This document shows, in pieces, positions 6,450 through 46,431 of a DNA stretch of 64,000 bases. Numbering within the stretch: position 1 is the stretch's first letter; every line of letters begins with the position of its first letter. The position numbers and the translations under genes were made by a program. The stretch is from assembly GCA_964436175.1 (NCBI GenBank), contig CAYTBX010000001.1:24306-88305 (forward strand), in the 5' to 3' direction. The stretch is from an uncultured Candidatus Saccharibacteria bacterium (GTDB lineage Bacteria > Patescibacteriota > Minisyncoccia > UBA6257 > UBA11618). Below the pieces are notes generated by a model, which worked only from the letters and a program-made list of their open reading frames with translations, had not been told where the DNA came from and did not search any database.

Positions 6450-6465
6450 TGAAGCAGAGCTACGA

Positions 6466-14219: not shown

Positions 14220-14227
14220 GGCGTAGT

Positions 14228-16335: not shown

Positions 16336-16339
16336 GATG

Positions 16340-17032: not shown

Positions 17033-17042
17033 ACCGTTAATT

Positions 17043-17519: not shown

Positions 17520-17523
17520 GGTA

Positions 17524-18246: not shown

Positions 18247-21200
18247 AGATTTTGTCCGTTAGTTCCGCGTGACTGCCCTGATTGATTATCGTTCTTATTC
18301 TTTTCGTCCCGCAAGAAGCTCCGTATCGGTTCGGGGATTACTGGTGTTGGTGGGGGCGTAAGAGGTCCTTGGTAGGCTATGCGTTTCGGTTGATCCGCCG
18401 GCATGAATTTCGGGATGACGCTGATTTGGTTTTCATTTACATTTCGTTCACGCTCCACCATGGTCTTTATCGGCTCTGGTATAGGCGTGGGCTTTTGTTC
18501 CGGTGGCACAAGAGGTCCTTTGTATTCTATTTTATTTTTCGGCTCCCATTCCGCATCGATCGGTTCTGGTGGCTGCCATCCCCTACCTTCGGTTTTAATC
18601 CGTTCATTTTCCTGTTTTACGAGGACATCGAGCTCGGGCGGCGTTACGGGTGTTCCTGCTGGCTTTGTCTCGGGTTGTGGATTAGTCGCAGCTTCCAGGC
18701 TCGCTAGATACTCCTCGCTTAGATCTGCGGCTTGGGGAGTTTTTGCCGTTTCCGGTGTTTCACTTTGGGTTTGCTTAGCCGATTTTCTGAACATTTCGTC
18801 TATCGTAGCTCCGATATCAGGGCCTTTTGAGTTCGCTGGCTCCGTTTCTTCGGGTTCCGTGTACTGAGGTTTATTAGCTGCCGGCTTCGGTTGCGGAGTG
18901 GCTGTGGGAGGTGGTGTTACTGGCTGTGCCGGTTGTTGTGGCGCCAACGTATATGTCGGTGCTGCCGCAGCCGCTCCTCCGGCAGCCGGATCGGGGGGTG
19001 CGGGCGGATTTTGAGGAGGCTTCTGCGGTCCGGCACTCGGCGGATTGCTCCCTCTGTCGTCGTCCTCCCACCATCCTTTTTCTTTTACTTTCGTTTCTTG
19101 CTTTTCCGTTTTCTCTTTCTGCTCTTTCTTCTCTTTTTGCTTTTCTTTGTCGGGGTTGCGCAAGCGATAATCCGTTTCGATTACGCGGAAGGCGTCTTTG
19201 CCTTCGGGCATTCTGACTATAGCCCAGCTTGAATTAGTTGTATTTTCTACGATAGGCTCTGCAAGTGTATCAAGGCGTGCAAGAGTTGCTGGGTCGGCGA
19301 ATGCGTTAAGGTATTCATCTCGTAAAGTCTCAAGAACAGCCCGTTGCTGTTCGGTGTCCGGTTCTTTTTGGAGTTGGCCGATATGTATTCCTTGGAGCTT
19401 GCCGAATATGCGCTTATTACGCAGGATATCCGGATGGATCAGAGATATATCTTTTTCCTTAGAAAAGTTTTTCTTTGCGAAGTCGCTAAGATCCTTTTCG
19501 GTAAATATATATTCACCGGTAATAGCATCCTTTTTATCGATGGTTTTAAGGAATTCATCCCGCTGTTTTCCCTTGTCGGCATCGCTGATGTATTTTAAGT
19601 GGTCATTCGTAAGATTGCGGACAACATCCTTATTACCAAGCAGTTGCGGGGTTAGTGCTGCTGCCGCTTCTTTTTTCGCAAACGTTTTCCCCATGTACTT
19701 ATCGAATTCCGCACTGCCTATTTTCTCCCGTAGGCGGATGATGGTGTCTGAAAACGCATCCCGATGCTCTTTGCTCTTCGGTAGTTTTGCTAGTTGATCG
19801 CCAGAAAGGCGCCTCACCACCTCAAGGTCCTCAAGTGCCTCCACTGGCAGGTCATCCCCATCTTCTGGCTTAAAGGCTTTAATAGCATCATCAAACTTCT
19901 TGCCGTCTTCTTTGTTGACGTATTCATCACCCTCCTTTTCTATATTCAAGCCGAATTTGCTGTAGAGGTGAGGCGCCTTCTTTAATATATCCGCGACAAA
20001 ACCGTAGCGTTTGAGGGCGGGAATGAATTCGTCTAATTTTTCCTGCGATACGTTTTTTTCGTCATCGCTGTTGTTCAGGAGTCCGCGCGCAACGCCTTCT
20101 TTCGCGAAGGCCGCCATGCGTTCGGAACTTAGCTTGATATCGGGATTATAAATAGCATTTCTTAGTTGTACATCGCCCATGCCCTTAGCTTCGGTTTCGA
20201 AGTTGCCGAGATTCTTACTCGTCCCTGCGGCGAATTTATTGATTTGCGGCGCAAAGCGGCTAATGAGAGGAATGCGTTGCAAGAATCCTGCAAGTTGGTT
20301 TCCGCGGTTATTTTCTTTCGTTCCGTCTCCGCCGCCGCTCAAGTACTTGCGGCCCGCCCATGCGGGGGCGCCCGTTGCCGCGCCTATTGCCCAGCCCTTT
20401 AATCCCTGCGCCCATTTGAGGGCGATTTCGCCGCCTGCGCAGCCGATGTTTCGCGATTCGGTGATTCCCAAAAAGAGCATGGTGAGGACGAGGACCATAT
20501 TCGTAATGGTTTGAAAGGGCGCTGCCATGAGCGAGAGCGTTCTCGTGGCGGTGAGCCCCCCTGGTAATCCCTTCGCCTGCTCGAATGAATTCAGTAGCGT
20601 ATTAATGTCGATAGCTTGCGAAGACCCGAACCCAACCTGCGCCTTGATCTGCACGAACATAATGACGATGTACATGGAAAACGTCGCGGCGGGCAGGTAT
20701 GTTAGCTGGCAGGTAAATTTTCCGTACCACTTGCCGTAGTAGCTCCGCGTATTGGGGAAGGAATAACAGAGGATGGCGAGGGGCATTACTATAATGAGCC
20801 CCGATAGCTGCGCGAAGCGCCATATGGTTGTGAGCCCCACCATGAGCATGCCGAGCGCGGCGAACGCGGTGAAGAGTGCGACGAAAAAGACGGAAAGTAT
20901 GCCTTCTAGTATGCCGTCGCCCTTGAGTGATTCGTATGCCTGTAGTCCGTCGCTCGTTACGAGGAGCTTTTGGGGGTTGAATGCCGAGGCGAGCGTTTCG
21001 GTAAATTGCTTCATACCCTCCCATGACCCCGCCACACCTCCTCCGCCGAGCGCGGCGTTCACGAAAAAGTTAGTGAGCATGTTCGATATGTCTATAAGGA
21101 ACCCCGCGATAGAGAAGCTGAAGTTAACGAGCACCGCTGCGAGGATGAAGTTCTTTATAAGGTTCTTCATGCCGTAGCTTTCGTAGCCGAGCATGGTGGC

Positions 21201-21692
21201 GTAGGCGATTACGACGATGCCTATCGTGAACCCGAGGTTCGCGAGGTCGCGGCAGAAGCGCCAGCCGAGCTGTACGACTTCGCTATCGAGGATAGTGGTA
21301 TTGAGATAGAGACCGAACGTAACGAGGACACTCGCAAGCGTGAAAGCCGTTGAGCCGATGAAGCCGGCGATATAGCTGACGGCAAAAAGCACGTAGCCGA
21401 TACCCTTGAGGCCGATCCAGCCGATGAACGACCCGCCGATGCCGGCAGCTGCCTCTGCGATCTTAGGGACTATACCGCTTATGAGCGGTCCGGTGCCGGA
21501 CCCGGTCACCGTTTGCGCGAGCGGGATAGCGATGCTTGAGGGGATGAGTCCGCCGGTAAATGCACTGATCGCTCCGCCAGCAGCTGCTTGTCCTATTGTC
21601 GGTGCTTGCGTTTGCGCATGCGTTGAAAGCGCCGCCCCGAAAAGAAGGGTGGTTGTCGTTATCGTAAGGATTGTTTTTAGGAACTTATGCAT
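18243..21692 (-). CDS. VirB6/TrbL-like polytopic membrane protein with a roughly 550-aa hydrophilic C-terminal extension
   Basis: 1149 aa. A signal peptide and many TM helices occupy the first ~600 aa. The C-terminus has a KE-rich block (KEKQKEKKEQKEKTEKQETKVKEK), a Pro-rich block, and a ~35-aa tandem repeat (YKGPLVPPEQKPTPIPEPIKTMVERERNVNENQ / YQGPLTPPPTPVIPEPIRSFLRDEKNKNDNQ). Confidence 0.65.
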   Translation of the reverse strand: MHKFLKTILTITTTTLLFGAALSTHAQTQAPTIGQAAAGGAISAFTGGLIPSSIAIPLAQTVTGSGTGPLISGIVPKIAEAAAGIGGSFIGWIGLKGIGYVLFAVSYIAGFIGSTAFTLASVLVTFGLYLNTTILDSEVVQLGWRFCRDLANLGFTIGIVVIAYATMLGYESYGMKNLIKNFILAAVLVNFSFSIAGFLIDISNMLTNFFVNAALGGGGVAGSWEGMKQFTETLASAFNPQKLLVTSDGLQAYESLKGDGILEGILSVFFVALFTAFAALGMLMVGLTTIWRFAQLSGLIIVMPLAILCYSFPNTRSYYGKWYGKFTCQLTYLPAATFSMYIVIMFVQIKAQVGFGSSQAIDINTLLNSFEQAKGLPGGLTATRTLSLMAAPFQTITNMVLVLTMLFLGITESRNIGCAGGEIALKWAQGLKGWAIGAATGAPAWAGRKYLSGGGDGTKENNRGNQLAGFLQRIPLISRFAPQINKFAAGTSKNLGNFETEAKGMGDVQLRNAIYNPDIKLSSERMAAFAKEGVARGLLNNSDDEKNVSQEKLDEFIPALKRYGFVADILKKAPHLYSKFGLNIEKEGDEYVNKEDGKKFDDAIKAFKPEDGDDLPVEALEDLEVVRRLSGDQLAKLPKSKEHRDAFSDTIIRLREKIGSAEFDKYMGKTFAKKEAAAALTPQLLGNKDVVRNLTNDHLKYISDADKGKQRDEFLKTIDKKDAITGEYIFTEKDLSDFAKKNFSKEKDISLIHPDILRNKRIFGKLQGIHIGQLQKEPDTEQQRAVLETLRDEYLNAFADPATLARLDTLAEPIVENTTNSSWAIVRMPEGKDAFRVIETDYRLRNPDKEKQKEKKEQKEKTEKQETKVKEKGWWEDDDRGSNPPSAGPQKPPQNPPAPPDPAAGGAAAAAPTYTLAPQQPAQPVTPPPTATPQPKPAANKPQYTEPEETEPANSKGPDIGATIDEMFRKSAKQTQSETPETAKTPQAADLSEEYLASLEAATNPQPETKPAGTPVTPPELDVLVKQENERIKTEGRGWQPPEPIDAEWEPKNKIEYKGPLVPPEQKPTPIPEPIKTMVERERNVNENQISVIPKFMPADQPKRIAYQGPLTPPPTPVIPEPIRSFLRDEKNKNDNQSGQSRGTNGQNL

Positions 21693-24801: not shown

Positions 24802-25617
24802 TTAATGCGTTAGCGCGGAGATTTTTTGGATTGTTTCGATGGCGAGGTTTTCGGGGCGTTCGGTGCCGAGGAGACCAGCTTGGGTTAAGAGGGTGAGGGC
24901 TTTTTCTTTAGGGATGTTGAAGCCGTCTGCAAGGTTATTGAGAATTGTTTTGCGGGGTTGTTGAAAAAGGATGCCGACCGTTTCGTAGTAGTTCGCGAGG
25001 GCTATGCCCGTAAGTGAGTCGGCTTTGGTTTCGATTGCGATGATTGCGGAGTCGATTGAGGGTGGTGGGTTGAAGTCCGTTGGTTTTAATTTCATTGCTA
25101 TGTGCGGCGTGCCCCAGATTTGCACGCATGCGGAGAGCCTATTCATGTCTGGGGCTGTAGAGCAGATGCGCAGGGCAACTTCTTTTTGGATGGTGAAGAC
25201 GGTGCGGAGGGGTTTGTTTTGCATATCGCCTACTATGCGGAGTAAATAACCCGTGATGTAGTACGGGATGTTGCCGGCGAGGACGTAGGGCGTTTTAAGA
25301 TCCGCGATGATGGGCGCGAGGTCTTTGAGTGCGTCCCCTTCCGTGACGGTAAGGCGATCAGCTAATTCTTGGGTCGTTCCGACACTGCGGTATTTTTCTT
25401 TAAGTAGTTCTGCGAGCTCGCGATCTTTTTCTATGACGATAATTTTTTTCGCGGGCGATGCGATAAGTAAATCAGTGAGCTCCCCGTGGCCCGGACCTAC
25501 TTCAATGACGGTGTCTTCCTCGGTAATCTTTAGTGATTCAACAACTGTTAAGAGCGCCTTTTTGTTTATCAAAAAATGCTGCCCGAGGGATTTTTTTGCT
25601 TTAGGTTCGGAGTTCAT
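24802..25617 (-). CDS. rsmA: 16S rRNA (adenine1518/1519-N6)-dimethyltransferase
   Basis: LGQHFLINKKALLTVVESL...IEVGPGHGELTDLL. Confidence 0.9.
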   Translation of the reverse strand: MNSEPKAKKSLGQHFLINKKALLTVVESLKITEEDTVIEVGPGHGELTDLLIASPAKKIIVIEKDRELAELLKEKYRSVGTTQELADRLTVTEGDALKDLAPIIADLKTPYVLAGNIPYYITGYLLRIVGDMQNKPLRTVFTIQKEVALRICSTAPDMNRLSACVQIWGTPHIAMKLKPTDFNPPPSIDSAIIAIETKADSLTGIALANYYETVGILFQQPRKTILNNLADGFNIPKEKALTLLTQAGLLGTERPENLAIETIQKISALTH

Positions 25618-25776
25618 CTTTAAAATAGGCCGCAGGCGGTTTCGCGGTATTTACGAGCGAGAAACGGGATCTTTCGACGAGGAATACCGAGGTATTCCGA
25701 GGAGAAAATCGCGGTTCGCAGCCGGAAATAACCGGAAGCGGCGCGGATTTTTCCTAAGCTATTTTTAAGATGAGCT

Positions 25777-27576
25777 CTAGTCATAGTCGAGCCACATTTC
25801 TTCTTCGTCGGGCATGCCTTGGCGGTTAGCTCGATTGGACGAAACTTTATTATTTACGAATTCTACCAAGTCGCCGGATATCTCGTAGAGGAATCTTGAC
25901 GGGACGTTTGAGAACGACATATGCAAATGCTTCGCCGCGCGGGTGATGGCTACGTACATAAGCCGCCGTTCTTCCTCCATTTCACCGCCACTTGATAATG
26001 CGCGGTGGTGCGGCAAGGTGCCCTCGCCTACGCCCGCAACGAACACGCTTTCGAATTCGAGCCCCTTCGACATGTGGATGCTCATGAGGTTTACGCCCGT
26101 CTTCCCGCTCGGGTTGTCGTGGCTCTGCGCTAAGGTTGCTTGCTCTAAAAACGCAGCAAGGCCGTCTTTAGCGAAGTCGCGCGCGAAGGTGAGGAGTCCT
26201 TGTACGTTTTCAATGCGCTCCTGCGAATTCTTGTAATTGTTCTTTAAGTAATCGAGGTAGTTGGTATTCGATACGAAGTAGTCGATGATTTCGCTTGGCG
26301 ACGCGGAGCCCATTTTAGGGAGAGCGTCTATAAGGAGGCGGCTTTTGCCTTTGGAAAAGTTCTTGTCGAGCCTATCGGCACTTACGCTATCTAGCGGATT
26401 CGCCGCCAAGCGCAAGCCCGCCACGATATCTTTAATTTCTTTACGTTCGTAAAAGCGGATGCCGCCGAACATGCGGTATGGCACGCCTGCGGATATGAGC
26501 GCTTGTTCTATTGGCCGTGACTGGGCATTCGTGCGGTAGATAACAGCCATGGATTCGAGCGACTTACCCTTTCTCCAGTTCGTGATCGCCGTTTTTACTA
26601 TCCACTCCGCTTCCATATATTCGTTTTCCGCGGCGAAGACTTGTATCTTTTCGCCCTGCGCGTTTTTCGTCCAGAGGTTTTTCTTGCGCTGGGTTTTGTT
26701 GTGACCTATTACGTCGTTTGCGGCTTCCAAGATTAACGGCGTCGAGCGGTAGTTTTCTTCGAGCATGACGATCTTTGCGGCCGGCCAGTCGCGTTCGAAG
26801 TTAAGGAAGTTGCGGAAGTCCGCGCCGCGGAAGGCGTAGATGGACTGCGCGTCGTCCCCCACTACGCTTAAGTTGCCGTGGCCGCCGGCGAGGCAACGCA
26901 CGAGCTCGTACTGCGCGGCGTTGATGTCTTGGTATTCGTCGATTAGTACGTGGTCGTATTTGCCGCGGTAGAGTTCGAGTACCTCGGGGTAATTACGGAA
27001 TAATTGTACGGGCTTTTCGATGAGGTCATCGAAGTCGAACGCGTTATTTTCCTTAAGGAGGTTTTCGTAGTCCTCGTAGCAGGCGCGGGCGGTATCGGGG
27101 TCTAGGTCGCGCGTCCCTTTAGCCGCCATTTCGGGTGCTATGAATTCGCTCTTCACTTTACCCATGAGTCGCGACAATACGGCGGGGCCGCACGTCTCTT
27201 TAGGCAGGTTGCGGTTCTTGCCGATTTTTTTAAGGAGCGAGCCAGTATCGTCTTCGTCGAAGATGGTAAAGCCTACGCTGCGGCCTAAGCGGCGCGCTTC
27301 GGCGCGCAGGAGGCGTGCGCCGAACGAGTGGAACGTGCCGATGAAAAGTTCTTTCGGGGCGCCTGCGCGTTTCTTCATTTCTTCCGCCGCCTTGTTCGTA
27401 AAGGTGATAGCGAGGATGCGCGCCGGCGGCACCTTCAAGTCGTTCAAAAGATAGTGGAGACGCTGCGTAAGGGTATGCGTTTTGCCGCTTCCGGCGCCCG
27501 CAGCAATAAGGAGTGGCCCTCCCTTGTGGTAGGCCGCTTCTGCTTGCCGGTCGTTCATATTTTTGCTAGTATTCAT
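25777..27576 (-). CDS. uvrD: UvrD/PcrA-family SF1 DNA helicase (short form, 599 aa)
   Basis: AGAGSGKTHTLTQR, ILAITFTNKAAEEMKKR, VLIDEYQDIN. Confidence 0.85.
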   Translation of the reverse strand: MNTSKNMNDRQAEAAYHKGGPLLIAAGAGSGKTHTLTQRLHYLLNDLKVPPARILAITFTNKAAEEMKKRAGAPKELFIGTFHSFGARLLRAEARRLGRSVGFTIFDEDDTGSLLKKIGKNRNLPKETCGPAVLSRLMGKVKSEFIAPEMAAKGTRDLDPDTARACYEDYENLLKENNAFDFDDLIEKPVQLFRNYPEVLELYRGKYDHVLIDEYQDINAAQYELVRCLAGGHGNLSVVGDDAQSIYAFRGADFRNFLNFERDWPAAKIVMLEENYRSTPLILEAANDVIGHNKTQRKKNLWTKNAQGEKIQVFAAENEYMEAEWIVKTAITNWRKGKSLESMAVIYRTNAQSRPIEQALISAGVPYRMFGGIRFYERKEIKDIVAGLRLAANPLDSVSADRLDKNFSKGKSRLLIDALPKMGSASPSEIIDYFVSNTNYLDYLKNNYKNSQERIENVQGLLTFARDFAKDGLAAFLEQATLAQSHDNPSGKTGVNLMSIHMSKGLEFESVFVAGVGEGTLPHHRALSSGGEMEEERRLMYVAITRAAKHLHMSFSNVPSRFLYEISGDLVEFVNNKVSSNRANRQGMPDEEEMWLDYD

Positions 27577-34554: not shown

Positions 34555-35175
34555 TTATTCTCCGTAGGTTTCGCGGTCTTCGGGCGAGGTGGGCGTAGTA
34601 GGCGCTTCCCCTGCGGGCATCGGCATACCCGCGCGCTTCGCGGATGTACGCGCTGTAGTGCGTCGTACGCGGCCGGCTCCTAGTATTACGCCGGGGAATT
34701 CGTCGAGCGTGACGAACGTATCAGCGACTTCCTTTAGCTTGCTTGAGGTGCTGCGCGAGAACGCCGCTACTTCTACTGTCTTTCCTAGCCCCCACTTCAA
34801 GTACTCCACGAGCGGACAGAAGTCTCCATCGCCTGTCACAAGTACAATAGCGTCGAACGAATCCGCCATGCGGATAGCGTCTACCGCCATGCCTACGTCC
34901 CAATCCGCTTTCTTCGCGCCACCGGCGAATATCTGAATGTCTTTTACGCGAAGTTCTACACCCGCCTTTATAAGTGCATCGAAAAATGCTGCCTCCCCTT
35001 CGGTGGTTTCCGTTTTAACAACGTAGCCAATAACGCGGATAAGCTTGCGGCCTGCCGTTACTTCTTTTACGAGTTCCTTGTAGTTAACGCGGGACTGGAA
35101 GAGGTTCTTAGCGGAGTGGTACAGGTTCTGTACGTCTATAAAAATACCGACGCGGTGTTCTTTATTGCGCGTCAT
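34555..35175 (-). CDS. NYN-domain (LabA-like) protein
   Basis: [18 protein letters not shown] ... [31 protein letters not shown]. Confidence 0.7.
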
Positions 35176-36572: not shown

Positions 36573-37055
36573 TTATGCCAAAAATAATATAAGGATGGTC
36601 GTTACGATGGAGGTTGCCGTAAGGGCGAGGGCTACGCGGAGGGCGTGGTATTTGTTGTGCGCCACTTTCGCTAAGTTGTAGGCGTTGTTATAGAGGGCTT
36701 TCGCGACATCGTCGTCCGTAAGCGCCATGCCGGTTTTGATATACGTTTCTTTTTTATACGCCGCAATGCTTTCGAAATACGTCATATCCCCCTTCTCCGG
36801 CTTGCCGCCGCGCGGGTAGATAACGGTAATGACGCTTTTGAGCGCTACGAGTATTAAAAGTACGGCGACGGCGAATACTGCACCCCACATCGGTGTTGCT
36901 CCCCCGCTCGCCTTGATAGTGTTGATGCGTGTAAGAAGCGCAGCGGTCGAGATACCTAAAACATACAACGTGGATACCGCCTTCGCGTCCGCCTGCTTTA
37001 TCAAGTCCGCAATCTGCCCCGCAGAGAATTTAGCGAAATCATTTTGTGCTGCCAT
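36573..37055 (-). CDS. Small 2-TM (plus a C-terminal hydrophobic helix) membrane protein, SLATT-like effector architecture; a speculative assignment
   Basis: Start taken at the internal ATG (MAAQNDFAKF...). An N-terminal amphipathic helix; TM1 STLYVLGISTAALLTRI; TM2 MWGAVFAVAVLLILVALKSVITVIY; a ~70-aa soluble segment; then a terminal hydrophobic helix ALRVALALTATSIVTTILILFLA. Confidence 0.45.
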   Translation of the reverse strand: MAAQNDFAKFSAGQIADLIKQADAKAVSTLYVLGISTAALLTRINTIKASGGATPMWGAVFAVAVLLILVALKSVITVIYPRGGKPEKGDMTYFESIAAYKKETYIKTGMALTDDDVAKALYNNAYNLAKVAHNKYHALRVALALTATSIVTTILILFLA

Positions 37056-37061
37056 ATATGT

Positions 37062-37090
37062 AGTATAACAAACTCGAAAATCGAAATCCG
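37062..37090. repeat. Four tandem 7-bp TCGAAA-type direct repeats in the divergent promoter region
   Basis: actcgaaa-atcgaaa-tccgaaa-ctcgaaa, lying between the starts of the two divergent unknown genes. Confidence 0.45.
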
Positions 37091-37187
37091 AAACTCGAAA
37101 CAAAAATATGGACAATTTATAAAAAACAGCGTATTGTAGTGACGGCTCTTGCCTATCATCAATCACACGTATTTCAGGAGATTTGTC

Positions 37188-37892
37188 ATGGCGCGTTCAG
37201 TTCCCCTTACCGAGGGTCGGGCAACTATGCTTATGTATCAGTTGCTCGATATGCTTACGGATATCGGCGATGGCAATGAGATCGGCGATCGCTTCGTTTC
37301 CTGTCTTTACGGGCATAAGCCGGCATTCCTTTCTTTATGCGGGGCTTCTACCGATCGATCCCAAAAGATCATTACTGAGCACGCGCGTCGGGATATCATT
37401 GCGGAATTTCTGCCGGTTGTTGGTTCCCTTATGGGATTTAATTCCCAACTGAGCGATTCGTACTACCTAGACGTCCGTTCCGGATGGCTGGATAACGAAA
37501 TCGGCTGCGCCGGTAATCGGTCTAACCGATTCGTTATGCGCAAATTGCCGTACGTCGCATACCGTTCTTTGCGGCGTACGCGCCTTATCCATTTGGTCCG
37601 GCGCATCAATCAGGAAGTTGATTTTCCGGATGCCACGGTTTGGGACGTACTTGCCATCCTACGTTCGTGTAGGCAACGCTTGCCGAGCAAGTGCGCGATT
37701 TGCGTTATGCCTGAATGTTCGTGGTTCTGCCCGAAGTACGAGCGTTATGACAGAGACGCACCGCGTTCGTGCATGATGTTTTTCTTGGACGGCAGAAAGC
37801 TCGATATCCGTAACGTGAGCGAGAACGCATTCGTTCCGAAGCAGACGCTCTTCTTGAGTTACGTCACTTCGACCGTCGACTTGCTCGCGTAA
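37188..37892 (+). CDS. Hypothetical Cys-rich soluble protein (234 aa)
   Basis: A C-terminal Cys cluster SCRQRLPSKCAICVMPECSWFCPKY; I recognise no family. Start taken at the internal ATG (MARSVPLTEG). Confidence 0.5.
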   Translation: MARSVPLTEGRATMLMYQLLDMLTDIGDGNEIGDRFVSCLYGHKPAFLSLCGASTDRSQKIITEHARRDIIAEFLPVVGSLMGFNSQLSDSYYLDVRSGWLDNEIGCAGNRSNRFVMRKLPYVAYRSLRRTRLIHLVRRINQEVDFPDATVWDVLAILRSCRQRLPSKCAICVMPECSWFCPKYERYDRDAPRSCMMFFLDGRKLDIRNVSENAFVPKQTLFLSYVTSTVDLLA

Positions 37893-37908
37893 GCAGTCCG
37901 GCTTTCGT

Positions 37909-37939
37909 GGCCGTATCCCGATCGGGATACGGCCGTTTT
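37909..37939. terminator. Perfect palindromic bidirectional terminator
   Basis: ggccgtatccc-gatc-gggatacggcc followed by gtttt. Confidence 0.6.
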
Positions 37940-37944
37940 CATAT

Positions 37945-38796
37945 TTAAAAAAGCGTGGGCGGGATTATTTTCTTTTTCGGCGAAGAAGTCTTGCGTTCCG
38001 GTAGGCCGCTTACGGTTATATGTGAAACGGCATCTGGCGCTGGATGAGTGTCTTTTTCAACGGCCGCTACGTATGCGCAGTAGTCGCAGGCGGCGTCCGC
38101 CTTCGGGATTTCGTTTTTATCGAGGCAGGCTTTGGCGTCTATGAGCGCCTTGTCTACCCAGTCGGAATTGCCCGTATAGGCGATGAGTGTTATATCGAAG
38201 TCGAGTTTGCCGTCGAAAGCCTTTCTATCAGTCTTCCCGTTGCAGTACACGAAGTAGCCGGTGTTAGACACCGTAAAGCCGTTTTGCCGCAGGAGCCATT
38301 GGTATATTTCCATTTGGCGCTTGTAGCCGTCGTGCCAGTCCTTATCCAGGGCATTAATCTCTTCTTCTTTCGCCGTCGCCTTGTAGTCCACCACCATGTA
38401 CTCCCCTGCGGCGTTCAGCCATAAATCGTCTATCGCGCCGAAGACGTAAAAATTAGTGGGGGCGTGGAGCGTGCCCACGCCTGTGAAGTTATGCCGCCAC
38501 TCGTCGAGCTTTTCGTGCTTAGCCGGTACGGCATCGATTCCGTACTTTTCCATAAGCGGGTGTTTCACGCCCGTCGCGCGGTGTATGTCGAATTCCTTTT
38601 TAAGTAAGTGGTCTACGGCGGAGTTCAAGGCGAACGGGAATCCGGGCGGCCGGCCGATGCCGATGCGCCTATCAAGATAGAAGCACCGCGGGCATTGCAT
38701 GAAGAGGTCAATCTTCGAGCGTGATAATTTGAAGGCTTCGCGTGAAGCCGGCTCGTATGTCCCTTTCGTGCGCTTGGCGGTGTAATATATCGACAC
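37945..38796 (-). CDS. PD-(D/E)XK nuclease, Cas4/RecB-like with a four-Cys cluster
   Basis: An N-terminal CPRC; a GAIDDL...MVVDYKAT core consistent with a D...D/ExK active site; a C-terminal C-x13-CDYC. Confidence 0.6.
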   Translation of the reverse strand: MSIYYTAKRTKGTYEPASREAFKLSRSKIDLFMQCPRCFYLDRRIGIGRPPGFPFALNSAVDHLLKKEFDIHRATGVKHPLMEKYGIDAVPAKHEKLDEWRHNFTGVGTLHAPTNFYVFGAIDDLWLNAAGEYMVVDYKATAKEEEINALDKDWHDGYKRQMEIYQWLLRQNGFTVSNTGYFVYCNGKTDRKAFDGKLDFDITLIAYTGNSDWVDKALIDAKACLDKNEIPKADAACDYCAYVAAVEKDTHPAPDAVSHITVSGLPERKTSSPKKKIIPPTLF

Positions 38797-39189
38797 TTAA
38801 TTAAATGTAATTAAGAAATTATACATACCCATGCCGCAGAGGCCTTGGAGTTCCGCTCCCGCCGCTTGGGGTGGCACGGGGATGTCCGTCATGCCAGTCA
38901 TTGGTAGATTGCTGCGGTAGCCGATAGCAGGGATTATAAGTGACGACGAGCAGTCGAATGTGCCTTTAGTGTTCATGCGGATGATCGTTGGCACGCCGGC
39001 TTTGGCTAATGTTGTTTGTGGTGCGTAGCCGCCCTTCGCGCTGATTTCGATTATTTGTGTGCCGTCTACGACGCTTACGTTATTTAATCCTGCTAAAAGG
39101 TCATTTGGATTATTTGTTGTGCGTGCGAAAAGAATTGTGCCTACAATAAGGACAATAGCGATGCCGATAGAAAGAAGAATTGTTTTCAT
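38797..39189 (-). CDS. Membrane-anchored cupredoxin-like domain protein
   Basis: N-terminal TM segment, then IIEISAKGGYAPQ...TFDCSSSLIIP...LCGMGMYNFLITF (the CGMGM-type C-terminal motif seen in copper-locus cupredoxin-like proteins). Confidence 0.55.
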   Translation of the reverse strand: MKTILLSIGIAIVLIVGTILFARTTNNPNDLLAGLNNVSVVDGTQIIEISAKGGYAPQTTLAKAGVPTIIRMNTKGTFDCSSSLIIPAIGYRSNLPMTGMTDIPVPPQAAGAELQGLCGMGMYNFLITFN

Positions 39190-40205
39190 ATAGTAAGAAT
39201 AGGCGGAATGACGCCGAATGCAACGAGGGCGCTTATCAGGTTGAAAATAGCGAAGAATATAACAATAAGCCCCGCGGTTTTAAAGAATATTCCTGATTGC
39301 GCTTTTGTGTGCAGCCCCAGTGCGCCAAAAGAGAGAAGTGCGAGTACGGGTAACGTGCCGAGCGCGAACGAGAGCATGGTAAGCGAACCCGCCCAAAAGC
39401 TGCCAGTCGAAAGCGAATAGAGTTGCATCGATTGCGTGAATCCGCAGGGTAAAAAAAACGTGGCGGTGCCGAGGAGTGCGGGTGTTAATGAGTGGTTAAT
39501 GTCTTTAAGTGCATGGGCGCGCCTACTTATAAAGCGTGGCGTGACAAGTTGAAATTTTTTTATCCACGGGAAGATATCGAGCAGATTTATACCGAGAATT
39601 AATAAGACGATTGCGACGGCGATTCCCATGGCGAATGCGCCGGTTGGGCCGATTTGGAACGTTGCGCCGAGCGTGCCGATTATGCCGCCTAAGACGAAGA
39701 ACGATACGAGGCGTGCGGCATGGAAGAGGATTTGCGGCCGGATACGGTCCCCTGCCTTCGCGAAGTTGGCGCTTATGGAAAGCGTGAGCCCGCCCACGAC
39801 CGCCATGCAGGTGGAGACGGATGCGACGAGCCCGATTGCGAACGCCGTGCCGTACGTTACCTGCGACGCGGTGATGAGGTTAACGATACCGAGTTTTTGA
39901 AGGGCAATGAAGATCGCGATGAAGGCGCCGGCGGCGGGTGCGGCGATTATAAAGTCGCGCCACCGCGCACCGTGCTTTTGCCGTTCTATCGAAACCGAAT
40001 AGCCGTGGGGCGCGAGTATGGTAGTAAGTTCACGTGCAAGCTCTTCTGGTTTTGTGTCCCCGAAGTCACCCGTAACTTCGAGGGTGTGCGTGGCGAGCGA
40101 TGCCCGTGCTTTTACTACCCCCCGTACGCCCGTTAGCTCGCTTTCCGTGAGCAGTACGCACGAGGCGCAGTGCATACCGCTTATGTGGAATAGGTATGTT
40201 TTCAT
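39186..40205 (-). CDS. HMA (heavy-metal-associated) domain fused to a polytopic DsbD/CcdA-like membrane domain
   Basis: N-terminal GMHCASC metal-binding motif, then roughly 8 TM helices with membrane-embedded Cys (STCMAVVGG; FFLPCGF). Confidence 0.5.
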   Translation of the reverse strand: MKTYLFHISGMHCASCVLLTESELTGVRGVVKARASLATHTLEVTGDFGDTKPEELARELTTILAPHGYSVSIERQKHGARWRDFIIAAPAAGAFIAIFIALQKLGIVNLITASQVTYGTAFAIGLVASVSTCMAVVGGLTLSISANFAKAGDRIRPQILFHAARLVSFFVLGGIIGTLGATFQIGPTGAFAMGIAVAIVLLILGINLLDIFPWIKKFQLVTPRFISRRAHALKDINHSLTPALLGTATFFLPCGFTQSMQLYSLSTGSFWAGSLTMLSFALGTLPVLALLSFGALGLHTKAQSGIFFKTAGLIVIFFAIFNLISALVAFGVIPPILTI

Positions 40206-40209
40206 GGGT

Positions 40210-42510
40210 TTATATTTTCTTGGCTTTCAATCGAAGCGAGTTAGCGACCACGGAGACGGAGGAAAGCGCCATGGCTGCGCCGGCGAATACCGGCGAGAGC
40301 GTTAACCCGAAAGCGGGGTATAAGGCGCCCGCGGCAAGCGGAATGCCTACTACGTTGTACGCGAATGCCCAGAAGAGGTTTTGGCGGATGCCGCGCATAG
40401 TGAGCCGCGAAAGACGAATTGCCTTTACGAGTTTGCTAATGTCGCCATGCAGGAGGGTGATGCCGGCCGTCTCGATTGCCACGTCCGTGCCCGTTCCCAT
40501 GGCGATACCGACGTTCGCTTGCGCGAGTGCTGGTGCGTCGTTTACGCCATCCCCTACCATAGCGACAATACGCCCTGCTTTTTGCAACTCTCTTATTTTT
40601 TTAAGCTTTTCATCCGGAAGGACTTCAGCGATCACTTCGTCTATTCCTACTGCGCGGGCAATTGCGTTTGCAGTATTTTCAGTATCGCCGGTAAGTATGA
40701 TGGTTTTTATGCCCATCTCGTGGAGGCTGCGCACTGCCTCAACCGCCTCTGCTTTTACGCTATCCGCAATCATTACAATTGCGAGTACTTCTTTTTCGTT
40801 TGCGAGTAGTATTGGCGTTGATCCTTTTTGCGTTTCCGTTTCGATATGGCTCACATCGAAAGAAATTGCACGCTCGTTCATAAGGGCGGCATTGCCGGCA
40901 AAGTAGCGCGTGCCATTAATGCTTCCCGTGAGCCCTTTGCCTTTTAAGGCTTCGAAATTCGTAGCGGCTCGTAGCTGGATACCGTTCGTTTTCGCGTATT
41001 CCGTTATGGCGTGAGCTATCGGGTGTTCGGACTTCGCTTCAAGCGATGCGAGGATAGCGATTAATTCATTTTTTTCAACGTTCCCATACGTGCGGATATC
41101 CGTGAGTTCCGGTTTGCCTTTCGTGATGGTGCCGGTCTTATCCATGACGACGGTGTTTGCCTTGTGGAGCGTTTCGAGCGTTGCCGCGTCTTTTATTAGG
41201 ATGCCTTCTTCTGCTCCCTTGCCTACGCCCACGATTATTGCGGTCGGTGTCGCGAGCCCCAAAGCGCAGGGGCAGGCAATAACGAGAACGCCAACGAATG
41301 AGGCGAGGCCGTACGAAAGTGCGAGCGCTCCGCCGAGTGCAGGCGTGCCGATAATAATCCATGCGGCGAGCGATACGAATGCTATGCCGAGAGTTATCGG
41401 TACGAAGACGGCTGATAGTTTGTCTGCAAGCGCCTGAATGGGCGCGCGGCTCCCCTGCGCCTCTTGCACCATAAGGACGATGCGGGCGAGTAAAGTCTCC
41501 TTACCAACCTTAGTTGCCGTAAACGTAAAAGACCCCGTGGTATTAATAGTGCCGGCAACGACCGCGTCGCCCGCGCCTTTTTTGACGGGCATTGGCTCGC
41601 CGGTCACCATCGACTCGTCGACGAACGATTCCCCTTCCGTAACCGTACCGTCTACAGGAATACGCGCGCCTGGTTTTACGATTATACGGTCGCCGTGCAC
41701 TACTTCGCCTACGGGCAGTTCTATTTCTTTGCCGCCACGGATTACGAGCGCGGTTTTTGCTTGGAGGTTAAGTAGTTTTTCGAGTGCTGCGCCGGTTTTT
41801 AATTTTGCCCGCGCCTCGAGATATTTGCCGAGAGTTATAAAAGCGATAACAACGATAGTGACGTCATAGTAGGTTTGGTCCGTATCGATAAGGCCCTTAA
41901 GCGGCTCTTCGAATGCGGAGAGGATAAAGCTGTATAGGTATGCGACGGACGTGCCGATGCCGATAAGCGTATCCATGTTCGCGGCTCCGTAGCGCAGGAA
42001 GCGATAGACACCCATAAGATATGGCGTGCCGATCACAAACATCATGTACGTCGCCATCAAGGGCAAGAGGTGGTGAAAGAATTCTTTTGTGATTTCTGCG
42101 GGTGGGGCGATGAACCCGAATGCGGCGAGCATATCCCACCCCATAACGAAGATACTAAATAGGGTGAGCGGAATAGACGCAATCACCATATTTTTCATAC
42201 TCCTGAGTTCGGCAATCTTTTCACTTTTCGATTGGCCGAGTCCCGTATGCGCTGCATGCTCGCTTGCAGACATACCCATAGACTCTGCGGATTGCGCTGC
42301 GGGGCTTACGAGCGAATAACCGAGCGGTTCTAGCAGTTTTGAAAGGTCTGCGGTAGTTACCTTCGATTCGTCGAACGAGATTTTCGCCGTTTCGGTGGCG
42401 TAGCTGACTTCTGCCGACGCTACCCCTTCGGCCTTTTTGAGCGTTTTTTCGATAATCGCCGAACACGATGCGCAGTGCATCCCCTTTACTTTGTATGTTT
42501 CCGTGTGCAT
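40210..42510 (-). CDS. copA: Copper-translocating P1B-type ATPase
   Basis: HMA GMHCASC, the TM6 CPC motif ([11 protein letters not shown]), phosphorylation site DKTGTIT, and [10 protein letters not shown]. Confidence 0.9.
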
Positions 42511-42511
42511 A

Positions 42512-42778
42512 TTATTTGCGCTTAAGACGATACACCGTGAGTATCTCTTCCCGTGCCTTAGCTCCATCACCTTTTTTTATTTGGTCGAGGGCGCATGTAC
42601 TTAAATGATTTTCCATCAGTACGTCCTCAATGCCGGAAAGAGCCTGTTTTACGGCGGACGTCTGGGTAATAACATCGATGCAATATGCCCCCTTTTCGAC
42701 CATATCCTGCAACCCGCGTACCTGCCCCCCCACAATCTTCAGGCGCCGCATTATTTTGCTTTTCGATTTTTCGAGCAT
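42512..42778 (-). CDS. csoR: CsoR/RcnR-family metal-sensing transcriptional repressor
   Basis: 88 aa: ...[35 protein letters not shown]...HLSTCA. It sits immediately upstream of copA. Confidence 0.8.
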
Positions 42779-42787
42779 GCTTTATTA

Positions 42788-42804
42788 ATACCCTCTAGGG
42801 GTAT
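42788..42804. promoter_or_regulatory. Candidate CsoR operator, a GC-core inverted repeat
   Basis: ATACCC-tctag-GGGTAT, about 10 bp upstream of the csoR start. Confidence 0.4.
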
Positions 42805-42826
42805 ATCTCGTCAAGTGAGAGGATAT

Positions 42827-44374
42827 TTATCGTACCGTAAAGCTAAACATCATACCCGTTTCTAGATGCTCGGAAATATGGCAATGCGCCATCCATGTGC
42901 CAGGGTTTGAAGTATCAAGTACGATATCAACTGTTTCGCCGGCGGGGACAAGTACCGTGTCTTTCCATGCGAGATTCGTTTCTTGTATACCGTTACGATT
43001 TACGATAAGAAATCGTTGGCCGTGAAAATGGATCGGGTGTTGCATCGGGTGCATGGAATTCGGGTCGTTAAATATCCGGATTTTCACCGGTATATCTTTT
43101 TTGAATGTCCAGTCGATAGCATTGTTTTCCTTGCTGGTTGCTTGGTCAATAATTTTCCATTTAACCATAGCCGTATTCGACATGGCATTCATCATTTGAT
43201 TCGTGTCATCCCACTCAATGCCGTCAGGAGATGTTCTCATCATCGATCCGCCCATCATCCCACCCGACATCATTCCCCCGCCGCCCATCATCCCTCGCAT
43301 GCCTCCATCGAGAGTGAGGGTTATTCGCTTTGTCGGCTCTGCTATAAAGAACGTGCGAAACGGATTGATGCTTGTTATCGTTTCTTGGTTAGTTTGTAAC
43401 GTATTAAACATTTGCTCGTATGAGGTGCGTGCCCGATCGCTCGTGACGGTAATAGTTCCTAATGCGTATGTCTTCTCTGGCGTTCTGTTTTCGATAGCGT
43501 ATATTCCGGCTTGTGGCACAAAAATATCCACAATAGCCCTTTCTGAAGGGCTGAGAATGACGCTTTCAACAAACATAGCTTTTTCGTACGCTCCGTTATC
43601 ACCTCCGACAAGTTTTAATTTCAGGCCATTGATCGTGAAATTGAACGGGCGAGCATTCGCGGCATTTATAACATACAGGCGGATTACCTCCCCTGCTTTT
43701 GCCATAAGATCAAATTTTTCTTTTCCATTTACAAGCATCACATTGCCGTAATGGCCCATAAGCGAATGGCTGATTATATTTTTATCGAGTGCAATTTTTC
43801 CGTTTTCAAGAGGTATGTCAGAAAGAAACAGAGGCACTTCTCGATTTACCGGTGGAAAAGAAGCGGGGTTGGTAGGCGTAACGATAAACGCACCGTAGAG
43901 CCCCAGCCCTTGTCCATACACCTCCTTCGCATGCGGATGGTACCAGTACACACCCGCGTCGGGGAATGCGAGTTTGTATGAAAATGACTCGCCCGGCTTC
44001 ATTTCTTTTTGCTGTAGTTGTGATCCGTCAAAGGCATTTTCCATGCGCACGCCATGAGAATGAAGGAGCGCGGGCATATCCGTGGCGTTTTTAAAATTAA
44101 TGGTAATTTCTGCGCCTTGGACAACTTTAATGGTCGGTCCGGGGATCGATCCGTTATAGGCAAGCATAGTTTGTTCTCTGCCATCTATAACTTTAACGAT
44201 GTAGTCTGCGGTAAGGTTGTAGATAGCGCCATTTTTAAGTTCAACAACAGCACTTTCTGTTGCAATAGATGCGGGATCGCTGGGTTGGCCTGCAAATAGA
44301 TAATATCCTCCGCCTAAAAGGAGTGCGCCAATGATTGGGTATAGAATCGTCTTATTTTTCATTTTTGTTTTCAT
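42827..44374 (-). CDS. Multicopper oxidase (CueO/laccase-like) with a Met-rich segment
   Basis: HWHG-type copper sites (HPIHFHGQRF; WMAHCHISEHLETGMM) and a Met/Gly-rich insert MRGMMGGGGMMSGGMMGGSMM. Confidence 0.85.
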   Translation of the reverse strand: MKTKMKNKTILYPIIGALLLGGGYYLFAGQPSDPASIATESAVVELKNGAIYNLTADYIVKVIDGREQTMLAYNGSIPGPTIKVVQGAEITINFKNATDMPALLHSHGVRMENAFDGSQLQQKEMKPGESFSYKLAFPDAGVYWYHPHAKEVYGQGLGLYGAFIVTPTNPASFPPVNREVPLFLSDIPLENGKIALDKNIISHSLMGHYGNVMLVNGKEKFDLMAKAGEVIRLYVINAANARPFNFTINGLKLKLVGGDNGAYEKAMFVESVILSPSERAIVDIFVPQAGIYAIENRTPEKTYALGTITVTSDRARTSYEQMFNTLQTNQETITSINPFRTFFIAEPTKRITLTLDGGMRGMMGGGGMMSGGMMGGSMMRTSPDGIEWDDTNQMMNAMSNTAMVKWKIIDQATSKENNAIDWTFKKDIPVKIRIFNDPNSMHPMQHPIHFHGQRFLIVNRNGIQETNLAWKDTVLVPAGETVDIVLDTSNPGTWMAHCHISEHLETGMMFSFTVR

Positions 44375-46431
44375 ATTTTCAATTTCGGTTCCACTCGTTT
44401 TAGGAGTACGGCGTTCGTCGCGACTATGATGGACGACACGGACATAAGCAGTGCGGCGATTTCTGGACGGAGCGACCAGCCGAGGGATGTGTAGAAAACA
44501 CCAGCGGCAACGGGGATGGCAAGCACATTATAGATCGCCGCCCAAAAGAGATTCTGTTTCATTTTTTGCACGGTCGATTTGCTTAAGCGGATTGCCGCGA
44601 CGATGTCGTACGGGTCGGATTTCATGAGTACGATACTCGCCGTTTCTATCGCCACGTCCGTTCCCGCGCCTATCGCGATGCCGATATTCGCTTGCGCAAG
44701 CGCGGGCGCGTCGTTTACGCCATCCCCCACCATAGCGACGAACTTGCCTTCGTCTTGCAATTTTTTAACATAACTCGCTTTGTCTTCGGGCATGACTTCC
44801 GCAAATACGCGATCAATGCCGAGCTCCTTGCCAACGGCCTCTGCTGTTTTTTTATTGTCCCCGGTGATCATCGCGGTTTCTATGCCGAGCTTTTTCAATT
44901 CCATAATTGTTTTTGCTGATGAGGTGCGCACTTCGTCAGAAATACCGATAATACCCACGGCAACGCCATCAACCGCGATAATGCTTAATGTTTTTCCCCC
45001 TGCGAGCAATGTTTCAATTTCTTTTTGGATGTCCGTGGTTGCGATGCCCTTGTCGCGTAATAACCGCTCTGTCCCGACAAGAACTGTTTTTCCACCGATA
45101 ACCGCTTCAAGTCCCAGTCCCGCAAGCGAAGCAAAGTTGCTGATAACGGATATTTGGACACTCCTTTTTTCCGCTTCCGCAAGTATCGCCGCCGAAAGCG
45201 GGTGGCTTGATTTCGTTTCAACGCTTGCGGCATAGCGCAGGATATCTTCTTCTTTCAGCGCGTCGGTCGCAATCACATCCGTCACTTTCGGCTTGCCTTC
45301 TGTGAGCGTTCCCGTCTTATCAAGTACGATGGCGTTTATTTTTGATGCGCCCTCGAGCGTCGCGGCATCTTTTATAAGAATATTATGTTTTGCACCCAGA
45401 CCGGTCCCCACCGCAACCGCTGTCGGCGTGGCAAGCCCCAATGCATCAGGGCAGGCAATAACAATCGTTGCAATAGCAAAGGTGAGAGCCACGGTGAATG
45501 TTGCGCCCGCAATAATATACCAACCGAAAAAGGCAAGAATGCCCGAAGCAACCGCAACCACGACAAGATAAGCAGCCGCTTTGTCCGCAATCCGCTGGCC
45601 AGGCGCTTTGGAATTTTGCGCCGTTTCTACCATCTTAATAATCGAGGCCAGTACGGTATCCGACCCGACTTTCGTGGCGCGAAATTGCACCGAGCCGCTT
45701 TGGTTGATGGAACCGCCAATGACTCTATCGCCCATGCCTTTTGAAACTGGTAATGATTCGCCGGTAACGAGCGCTTCGTCAATTGACGTCTCGCCTTCTG
45801 TTATTTCGCCATCAACGGGAACTTTGTCGCCGGGCTTTAGTATCACGATATCATTCAAGATTACTTCCGCGCTCGCGATAAGCATTTCTTTGCCGTTGCG
45901 CATCACGCGCGCTTGCGGGGGCACAAGGTCAAATAATGCGCGAAGGGACTCCGATGTGCCACGACGTGACTTCATTTCCATCCAATGTCCGAAGAGCACA
46001 AAGGTAACGAGAAGCGCCGCGGCTTCATAAAACACTTCGCCACCGCCAATCATAGCAAGCGTGATACTGCCAAGATATGCCGCCAAAACGCCCGTCGCCA
46101 CTAAAACCGCCATATTAAGCTTTTTCGCTTTAAGTGAATAATAAGTACCGGTAATGAAAATAGATCCCGTCCAAAAAACAATCGGGGTAGTGAGAATGAA
46201 AAGAAGTAGATTAATCGGAATAGGCGACCAAAGAGAAAGCCCAAATACATTTACCCCTACCGGCGAATAAAGAAAAATCGGGATAGAAAGCACAAAAGAA
46301 ATCCAAAACCGGCGGCGCATATCCGCCTCCATCTGCTTTGCCATGGCGGGGTCCGTCATCGCGCTTTCGTGATCCATAGCCGACATTGCAGACATAGAGC
46401 GGTTTTTTGGATTGTGGTTTTCGTGATTCAT
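44371..46431 (-). CDS. P1B-type heavy-metal ATPase without an HMA domain; it has a His/Met-rich N-terminus and an unusual CPD TM motif
   Basis: [17 protein letters not shown], and TM6 VIACPDALGLATP (CPD rather than CPC/CPH). The N-terminus reads MNHENHNPKNRSMSAMSAMDHESAM. Confidence 0.85.
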   Translation of the reverse strand: MNHENHNPKNRSMSAMSAMDHESAMTDPAMAKQMEADMRRRFWISFVLSIPIFLYSPVGVNVFGLSLWSPIPINLLLFILTTPIVFWTGSIFITGTYYSLKAKKLNMAVLVATGVLAAYLGSITLAMIGGGEVFYEAAALLVTFVLFGHWMEMKSRRGTSESLRALFDLVPPQARVMRNGKEMLIASAEVILNDIVILKPGDKVPVDGEITEGETSIDEALVTGESLPVSKGMGDRVIGGSINQSGSVQFRATKVGSDTVLASIIKMVETAQNSKAPGQRIADKAAAYLVVVAVASGILAFFGWYIIAGATFTVALTFAIATIVIACPDALGLATPTAVAVGTGLGAKHNILIKDAATLEGASKINAIVLDKTGTLTEGKPKVTDVIATDALKEEDILRYAASVETKSSHPLSAAILAEAEKRSVQISVISNFASLAGLGLEAVIGGKTVLVGTERLLRDKGIATTDIQKEIETLLAGGKTLSIIAVDGVAVGIIGISDEVRTSSAKTIMELKKLGIETAMITGDNKKTAEAVGKELGIDRVFAEVMPEDKASYVKKLQDEGKFVAMVGDGVNDAPALAQANIGIAIGAGTDVAIETASIVLMKSDPYDIVAAIRLSKSTVQKMKQNLFWAAIYNVLAIPVAAGVFYTSLGWSLRPEIAALLMSVSSIIVATNAVLLKRVEPKLKI

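Follow-up and report, generated by a model that had tools for sequence, protein, structure and literature searches.

To our knowledge, effectors of the PycTM type have been described only as the output of anti-phage systems that are based on a cyclase, and very little is known about phage/host conflict in organisms of the Candidate Phyla Radiation (CPR). The effectors of Pycsar and Pucsar systems (PycTM and PucTM; PF18967) are described in the literature as being switched on by the products of a cyclase, PycC or PucC, which is encoded next to them. A 2026 preprint places both effectors among the "pJV1-SpdB3 family 3TM" proteins and reports that PucTM forms a hexameric cylinder. Here we describe a PycTM-family gene with no adjacent cyclase, found in a 64-kb stretch (the window) of contig CAYTBX010000001.1 (assembly GCA_964436175.1, positions 24,306 to 88,305). 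The gene is divergent from an open reading frame of no recognized family, ORF B, beyond which lies a gene for a Cas4-like PD-(D/E)XK nuclease. An earlier reading of the DNA made without database searches, referred to below as the sequence-only reading, had considered the three genes a possible acquired defense or conflict module. On balance, and with only modest confidence, we consider them three independent transcription units in a vertically inherited CPR backbone and not one module.

Gene order and evolutionary rates suggest that the locus belongs to the chromosome backbone of a Candidatus Harrisonbacteria-like CPR lineage of ultra-small groundwater bacteria. The relatives are about 15 related contigs, all from one narrow clade. 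Among genome records, a metagenome-assembled genome of Candidatus Harrisonbacteria (L007; about 88% nucleotide identity) is the closest. It was the one locus found when genome contigs were scanned with the single PycTM sequence, and a scan of metagenome contigs found four loci. The gene order common to the related contigs is pnp, NYN, rpsO, rpsA, and PycTM on one strand, ORF B on the opposite strand, and then the genes up to the PD-(D/E)XK nuclease. Every ORF B relative with readable context is in this same chromosomal place. The trio is directly adjacent in the window, L001, L002, and L018, and a distant subclade (L011-L016, L020) has an unknown gene of 243-247 aa and pyrF between ORF B and the nuclease gene. 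Protein identity in the distant loci, measured against the window, is 72-76% for rpsA, 59-64% for PycTM, 64% for the nuclease, and 22-31% for ORF B. The ratio of nonsynonymous to synonymous substitutions (dN/dS) is 0.03-0.07 for rpsA, 0.06-0.08 for the nuclease, and 0.03-0.10 for PycTM (Nei-Gojobori), with L007, L019, and L024, which have no ORF B, included. The similarity of the PycTM and nuclease ratios to that of rpsA shows that both behave as vertically inherited and strongly constrained genes.

The membrane protein is a member of the PycTM family. It matches the Pfam model PF18967 (PycTM; E 5.6e-13, 49.7 bits, cut-off 27.2) and the PADLOC PycTM model PDLC02364 (E 2.7e-21), with residues 4-157 covered. 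The PADLOC "2TM effector" models for cyclic oligonucleotide-based anti-phage signaling systems (CBASS) also match it, from 3e-14 to 6e-4. The sequence-only reading had compared the protein with SLATT-type effectors. Its placement in a family of nucleotide-signaling defense membrane effectors stands, but the SLATT assignment does not, as no SLATT model matched at E <= 1 in the Pfam scan, which returned PycTM and a chance TRL10 match alone. A profile search of PycTM against PDB sequences gave no match. The membrane architecture proposed earlier, with closely spaced transmembrane (TM) helices and a terminal hydrophobic helix, agrees with hydropathy, which shows strong segments at about residues 50-83 and 138-160. 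A 19-residue Kyte-Doolittle scan puts the strong segment centers at 59-74 and 147-151. A weaker Ser/Thr-rich hydrophobic segment at about 26-42, read by eye from the sequence, brings the total to three, in agreement with placement in the pJV1-SpdB3 3TM family. The protein thus resembles Pycsar and Pucsar effectors in its full-length profile match, its comparable length (160 aa), and the number of its hydrophobic segments, which is three. By homology to these effectors it would most likely be an oligomeric membrane pore, and the same pore architecture is presumed here. The 2TM effectors of CBASS and the SLATT-type effectors are likewise small membrane proteins that act as suicide effectors of nucleotide-signaling systems, but this locus has no CD-NTase or SMODS partner, and the best family is PycTM.

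In contrast to Pycsar and Pucsar loci, no cyclase adjoins the PycTM gene here. Its neighbors in the window are rpsA and ORF B, with the nuclease gene beyond, and none of these is a cyclase. The first PADLOC scan of the whole window gave many matches to the GajB model, and these most likely stem from an ordinary UvrD helicase at 25777-27576. The scan was repeated without the large proteins, and no PycC or CD-NTase model matched the 54 smaller window proteins that were left. No cyclase domain was found in the large window proteins, nor was a cyclase found in the flanks of the roughly 15 related loci. The PADLOC check proposed in the sequence-only reading therefore returned PycTM, but no cyclase, CD-NTase, or cas partner in the window. 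The lack of a neighboring cyclase suggests that the gating signal of PycTM, if any, comes from elsewhere, or that the protein has a constitutive membrane role. The gene also differs from Pycsar effector genes in being core-like, vertically inherited, under strong purifying selection, and adjacent to rpsA; some strains have it only 18 bp after the nuclease gene.

The PycTM gene is maintained with or without ORF B and has a predicted promoter of its own. Orthologues at the same locus are 59-97% identical. Compared with the strains that have no ORF B, its dN/dS is 0.034 (L007), 0.057 (L024), and 0.069 (L019), and purifying selection is thus at the housekeeping level in both kinds of strain. All close relatives have the motif TTGCTATACT at a distance of 6-9 nt from the PycTM ATG, on its upstream side, and the junctions without ORF B have it too. 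An extended -10 element (TGn-TATACT) this close to the start codon predicts a leaderless or nearly leaderless mRNA from the gene's own promoter.

Two PycTM neighborhoods differ from the common arrangement. The most distant orthologue (L021, in L021-23; 53% identity) is in another gene context, again without a cyclase; at L021 3822-4797 it follows an unknown gene of 162 aa, with 8 nt between the two, lies ahead of ZnuA, and has a Y1 transposase-like gene nearby. L001 (GCA_034680565.1) has two extra unknown genes of 321 and 291 aa between PycTM and rpsA (5513-7390). They have no Pfam or PADLOC match, and the first overlaps the PycTM stop codon by 4 nt. This insert suggests that the PycTM-rpsA junction is also an insertion site.

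ORF B evolves very differently from its neighbors and is dispensable. Its dN/dS is 0.18-0.32 (Nei-Gojobori), three to four times that of the neighbors, which marks it as a genuine coding gene that is less constrained than they are. Strains that are close to the window in the flanking genes have divergent ORF B proteins. L017 is 97% identical in PycTM and 98% in rpsA, with 40% in ORF B, and L008 is 100% identical over 50 aa of PycTM, with 43% in ORF B. Similarly, PycTM and nuclease identities are 96% and 92% in L002 (ORF B 60%) and 90% and 87% in L018 (ORF B 42%). Nucleotide identity drops at the exact start codon of ORF B, from 79-90% to 35-60%, and the promoter and 5' untranslated region (UTR) segment at 37100-37199 is 79-87% identical in the three closest strains (L017, L008, and L009). 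Synonymous differences (pS) are near saturation in ORF B (0.71-0.78) versus 0.30-0.58 in the flanks. The similarity matrices of ORF B and PycTM are incongruent: the window's nearest relative is L001 for ORF B (72%), and L017, L007, and L008 for PycTM. The variation is spread over the ORF B protein, with the N-terminus being the most variable part.

Three lineages (L007, L019, and L024-26) lack ORF B altogether, and L010 has ORF B without PycTM. The junction without ORF B is common to L024, L019, and L007 and consists of the nuclease stop codon, ATTTGCTATACT, 6-7 nt, and the PycTM ATG. ORF B is found in both subclades and is therefore ancestral, and the haplotype without it is a deletion. These results indicate that ORF B exists as deep allelic lineages and a null allele that move between strains by recombination, so that strains almost identical in other respects differ through exchange or deletion of the allele. 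With its hypervariability, presence/absence polymorphism, and incongruence with the flanks, ORF B appears to evolve as conflict genes do, and it is likely to be a strain-specific recognition or conflict factor. Since PycTM is as constrained without ORF B as with it, ORF B is not an obligate antitoxin, activator, or chaperone of PycTM. The antitoxin reading was rejected on the ground that PycTM is intact and constrained in strains without ORF B. PycTM is also nearly invariant across very different ORF B alleles, which shows that the two proteins do not covary.

At the place of the window's ORF B, L007 has a different element. It is a copy (L007 5821-5976; 87% identical, opposite orientation) of a structured 157-bp element found in the window at 25619-25776, between ksgA-like (24802-25617) and uvrD-like (25777-27576) genes. 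The RNA minimum free energy of the window copy is -56.7 kcal/mol. The element contains a palindrome in its interior (GGAATACC..GGTATTCC) and has imperfect inverted repeats at its ends (CTTTAAAATAG / CTATTTTTAAG). No Rfam family matches it, and it looks like a mobile element of the miniature inverted-repeat transposable element type or a small RNA.

The ORF B protein belongs to a small, clade-specific family. Pfam, NCBIfam, PADLOC, and PHROGs scans of the protein and 11 relatives gave no family match, and PDB sequences searched with a profile gave none either. In total the family has about 13 proteins, which were found by running HMMER exhaustively over 1.84 billion cluster representatives and by two indexed searches that covered 5.8 billion clusters. 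The proteins are basic (isoelectric point 8-9.9) and have no TM segment and no signal peptide. An early AlphaFold run on a four-sequence alignment was unusable (pLDDT 51), and AlphaFold2 with 12 sequences gave one good model of five (pLDDT 72, pTM 0.74). Residues 9-64 of the model are helical, low in confidence, and highly variable, and residues from about 112 to 234 form a confident alpha/beta domain that is better conserved than the N-terminal region. Foldseek comparison with PDB and viral models found nothing below E 0.2, with lectin-like folds near the top. Weak matches to C-type-lectin-like folds recur, and no cyclase, nucleotidyltransferase, TIR, or nuclease fold was among the matches. 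The earlier statement that ORF B has no recognized family therefore holds after profile and fold searches, and of the checks proposed there, profile searches identified the membrane protein as PycTM and fold searches gave only weak C-type-lectin-like matches for ORF B. The C-terminal Cys cluster noted earlier (CRQRLPSKCAICVMPECSWFC) is present in the window protein, but it is not a family feature; it is limited to the closest alleles and is lost in members below about 50% identity.

ORF B resembles known hypervariable loci of a single gene that evolve under diversifying or balancing selection, such as defense specificity or sensor genes and the proteins with C-type-lectin folds of diversity-generating retroelements (DGRs). 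The shared features are divergence limited to one gene, presence/absence polymorphism, incongruent alleles, and a weak C-type-lectin-like fold. However, the window contains neither a reverse transcriptase nor a template repeat, and the variation is not confined to a C-terminal variable region as it is in DGR proteins. A DGR variable-protein reading of ORF B was rejected for lack of the first two.

The nuclease is probably a RecB/Cas4-like, Fe-S-type core DNA-processing protein of the clade that is not associated with CRISPR. The superfamily model PF12705 is the only one that it passes (E 4.5e-12), and it is below the cut-offs of Cas_Cas4 PF01930 (15.0 bits, cut-off 22.7) and TIGR00372 (22.3 bits, cut-off 65). 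Orthologues are found in all long relatives and are 64-92% identical. The PD-(D/E)XK core (D123/D124, D137-x-K139, and Q161xxxY165) and five cysteines (C35, C38, C224, C238, and C241) are invariant in six orthologues. A profile search against PDB sequences gave no match. There is no CRISPR-like repeat-spacer array in the window, as the sequence-only reading had noted, and no cas proteins except a weak Csa3-like match (8e-5) elsewhere in it. Its description of a stand-alone Cas4-like PD-(D/E)XK nuclease is also upheld, with motifs and cysteines conserved and scores below the Cas4 cut-offs. Solo non-CRISPR Cas4/RecB nucleases likewise have the D...DxK and QxxxY motifs, cysteines at both ends compatible with an Fe-S cluster, and no cas genes. 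The nuclease here differs from these in scoring below the Cas4 family cut-offs, in having an N-terminal CxxC instead of a single Cys, and in being a conserved core gene of the clade.

These observations are consistent with three separate units. PycTM would be transcribed from its own extended -10 promoter. ORF B would have a conserved promoter of its own, together with a Shine-Dalgarno site and a terminator that is strong, and the nuclease would be an independent core DNA-processing unit. Several points weigh against this interpretation. The divergent PycTM/ORF B arrangement persists in ten lineages, down to 59% PycTM identity, longer than would be expected of genes with no relation to each other, and the back-to-back promoters would permit co-regulation of the two genes, so they could be functionally linked. 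All of the relatives are from one narrow clade, which makes synteny and function inseparable. The cyclase search covered 64 kb of the genome, and the remainder may encode a cyclase. Confidence in the structure model of ORF B is only medium (pLDDT 72, one of five models good). Finally, synonymous divergence (dS) in ORF B is near saturation and is inflated by high dN; the idea of ancient alleles is supported, not proven, and because dS is saturated, very fast gene-specific evolution of ORF B may still be responsible.

The alternative that survives best is a two-gene abortive infection system without a cyclase, in which ORF B is a hypervariable cytoplasmic sensor that recognizes a ligand from the phage or the host through its variable part, gates or regulates the PycTM pore directly, and so replaces the cyclic-nucleotide step. 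We consider it unlikely. PycTM belongs to an effector family, and the sequence-only reading had proposed looking for the same pair in other genomes; the divergent pair is kept in ten distinct lineages from two subclades, all of one clade. ORF B shows the marks of an arms race, namely hypervariability, presence and absence, allele exchange, and a dN/dS three to four times that of its neighbors. Its weak but recurrent fold signal also fits, as the C-type-lectin scaffold tolerates ligand-binding variation. However, PycTM is intact in the three lineages without ORF B (dN/dS 0.03-0.07), L010 keeps ORF B without PycTM, and PycTM does not covary with ORF B alleles. PycTM behaves as a core gene and not as a defense gene with fast turnover, and no known sensor domain was found in ORF B. 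The more far-reaching proposal that ORF B founds a new class of hypervariable intracellular sensors, which would gate the PycTM pore in a messenger-free Pycsar-like abortive infection system retained by a CPR episymbiont with a streamlined genome and diversified by allele exchange between strains, seems to us improbable.

A split Pycsar or Pucsar system is also doubtful. According to this explanation, PycTM is gated by a cyclic mononucleotide from a cyclase elsewhere in the genome of about 1 Mb, and ORF B and the nuclease are bystanders. The strong full-length PycTM match and the activation of PycTM and PucTM effectors by cyclase products in the literature are in its favor, as is the fact that 64 kb of the genome was seen. 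However, Pycsar effectors by definition adjoin their cyclase, and none was found within these 64 kb or in the flanks of relatives. The distant orthologue in L021 is without a cyclase as well.

An acquired three-gene defense island, consisting of a membrane effector, a sensor, and a Cas4-like nuclease, is very improbable. The adjacency of the genes in the window, L001, L002, and L018 suggests such an island, and two of the three genes are from families used in defense. However, in the distant subclade pyrF and one further gene stand between ORF B and the nuclease gene, ORF B is lost in L007, L019, and L024-26, and PycTM is lost in L010, so a module of three genes is not supported. The GC and GC3 (third codon position) z-scores of the three genes are -0.4 to +1.2 relative to the window's genes. 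These values are within about 1.2 standard deviations and thus give no compositional sign of acquisition, and the deviation in GC that the sequence-only reading had proposed to look for is absent. No match was found by BLAST against phage DNA or by scans of viral contigs with PycTM and ORF B, and the trio has no mobility genes at its flanks. The shared syntenic position in relatives, the housekeeping rates of PycTM and the nuclease, both core genes, and the native composition all contradict the earlier idea of an acquired conflict system at this site.

The variable insert in this region is the neighboring copper/metal island. On the far side of the nuclease gene, the window and L007 have this island, and L001, L024, L010, L013, and L016 have MscL, DUF2177, BacA, or sigma factors. 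This difference among relatives shows that the island is the variable insert and the trio is not. The metal island, and not the trio, is the acquired segment. In the window it extends from 38797 to 46431 and includes a cupredoxin-like gene, an HMA+DsbD_2 gene, two P-type ATPases, and genes for a CsoR-type repressor and a multicopper oxidase. The five loci just listed do not have it at that position, and its cupredoxin-like and oxidase genes are low in GC (z -1.7 and -2.1).

The heptads between PycTM and ORF B are a strain-variable simple repeat. As reported in the sequence-only reading, there are four in tandem, but they are located at 37072-37100 and not at 37062-37090, a difference of 10 nt. 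Tandem Repeats Finder (TRF) gives a period of 7, 4.6 copies, and a score of 43, which is under the default threshold of 50. A two-heptad pattern has three overlapping matches at the array and one elsewhere in the window; in shuffled sequences the mean was 1.0, and four matches were reached in 1 of 100. The array is real but short, and modestly beyond chance. It is present in 3 of the 11 ORF B loci (window, L001, and L009). L017 and L008 have a shorter spacer segment that creates a TCGACA -35 element instead (TCGACA-17-TATCGT), and L002 and L018 have other insertions in the spacer. This patchiness in an indel-prone spacer argues for a strain-variable simple repeat and against a conserved operator. 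The array is probably a slippage-type repeat between the two promoters, and it may alter expression locally. The earlier proposal of regulator binding sites is contradicted by the absence of the heptads from the other eight ORF B loci. That ORF B is a transcription factor acting on the heptads to control the divergent PycTM gene is hardly credible: the heptads do sit between both promoters, and ORF B is basic (isoelectric point 8-9.9) with an N-terminal helical bundle in the model, but 8 of 11 loci lack the heptads, 12 ORF B members show no helix-turn-helix or DNA-binding family, variability is highest in the N-terminus, which is where DNA would be bound, and strains without ORF B keep the PycTM promoter and coding sequence.

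Three independent units in a vertically inherited backbone, the reading that we prefer, would still make this locus of interest. A conserved PycTM core gene without a cyclase in a minimal CPR genome raises the questions of what gates PycTM and whether the family has roles beyond Pycsar. ORF B would be a clear case from nature of one gene that has a null haplotype and alleles that are both deep and exchangeable, in an otherwise clonal backbone. If PycTM and ORF B are functionally linked, they would constitute a messenger-free variant of nucleotide-signaling immunity. If they are not, the locus would still be useful for tracing diversifying selection at the level of CPR strains. The lesson for annotation is that an effector family beside an unknown gene and a nuclease can reflect plain synteny.

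Table 1. Coordinates of the PycTM, ORF B, and nuclease genes and of the elements between them, numbered from the first nucleotide of the window.
Feature	Position	Strand	Description
PycTM gene	36573-37055	minus	160 aa from ATG; PycTM-family (pJV1-SpdB3-like 3TM) membrane protein; orphan
Extended -10 element of PycTM	37062-37070	minus	TGT-TATACT, 6 nt before PycTM ATG; putative function
Four tandem heptads (ACTCGAAA ATCGAAA TCCGAAA CTCGAAA)	37072-37100	plus	TRF, pattern test
Sigma-70-like promoter of ORF B, TGGACA-17-TATTGT	37109-37137	plus	Consensus scan; predicted
ORF B	37188-37892	plus	234 aa; soluble, basic, lineage-restricted; no family
Perfect palindromic hairpin, convergent gap between ORF B and nuclease	37907-37936	.	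13-bp stem
RecB/Cas4-like PD-(D/E)XK nuclease	37945-38796	minus	283 aa; conserved Cys; clade core gene

The coordinates of the three open reading frames and the divergent arrangement given in the sequence-only reading are borne out, with 132 bp between the PycTM and ORF B starts. Alternative starts were rejected at TTG 37149 for ORF B and at GTG 37166 for PycTM, as the homologues share the ATG in each case. An AGGAG sequence (37176-37180) precedes the ORF B ATG by 7 nt, and the N-terminus is the same in homologues. The distant loci L011, L013, and L020 retain a version of the ORF B promoter, TGGACT-17-TATTTT. The perfect palindromic terminator reported earlier between ORF B and the nuclease gene is also real: it is a 26-nt perfect self-complement with 8 GC pairs in the 13-bp stem and a 4-nt loop, followed by a T-rich tail (TTTCATATTT), and it is likely to be a bidirectional intrinsic terminator. 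An Rfam scan of the entire window gave no match.

The ORF B leader in the distant subclade may contain a conserved regulatory stem that is not found in the window's subclade. In L011 (about 5960-5990), L013 (about 5920-5945), and L020, a hairpin immediately precedes the Shine-Dalgarno site in the 5' UTR. The stems differ and yet stay paired (GCCCC/GGGGC, GCCC/GGGC, and CGTCCC/GGGACG).

Several other features of the window and its relatives were observed. The NYN-domain (RNase-like) gene at 34555-35175 lies between rpsO and pnp and overlaps rpsO by 14 nt, and the RNA-metabolism operon rpsA-rpsO-NYN-pnp is fixed in every relative examined. In L001, a CPDase/2'-5' RNA ligase gene and enolase are duplicated in inverted orientation at 13085-16711, which may be an assembly artifact or a real inverted repeat. 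At 14635-21692 of the window, a TraG/VirD4-like P-loop ATPase (14635-16335) is near an 1148-aa protein with no Pfam match (18243-21692), and the two may belong to a cluster for secretion or related to pili, of the kind that CPR episymbionts typically have.

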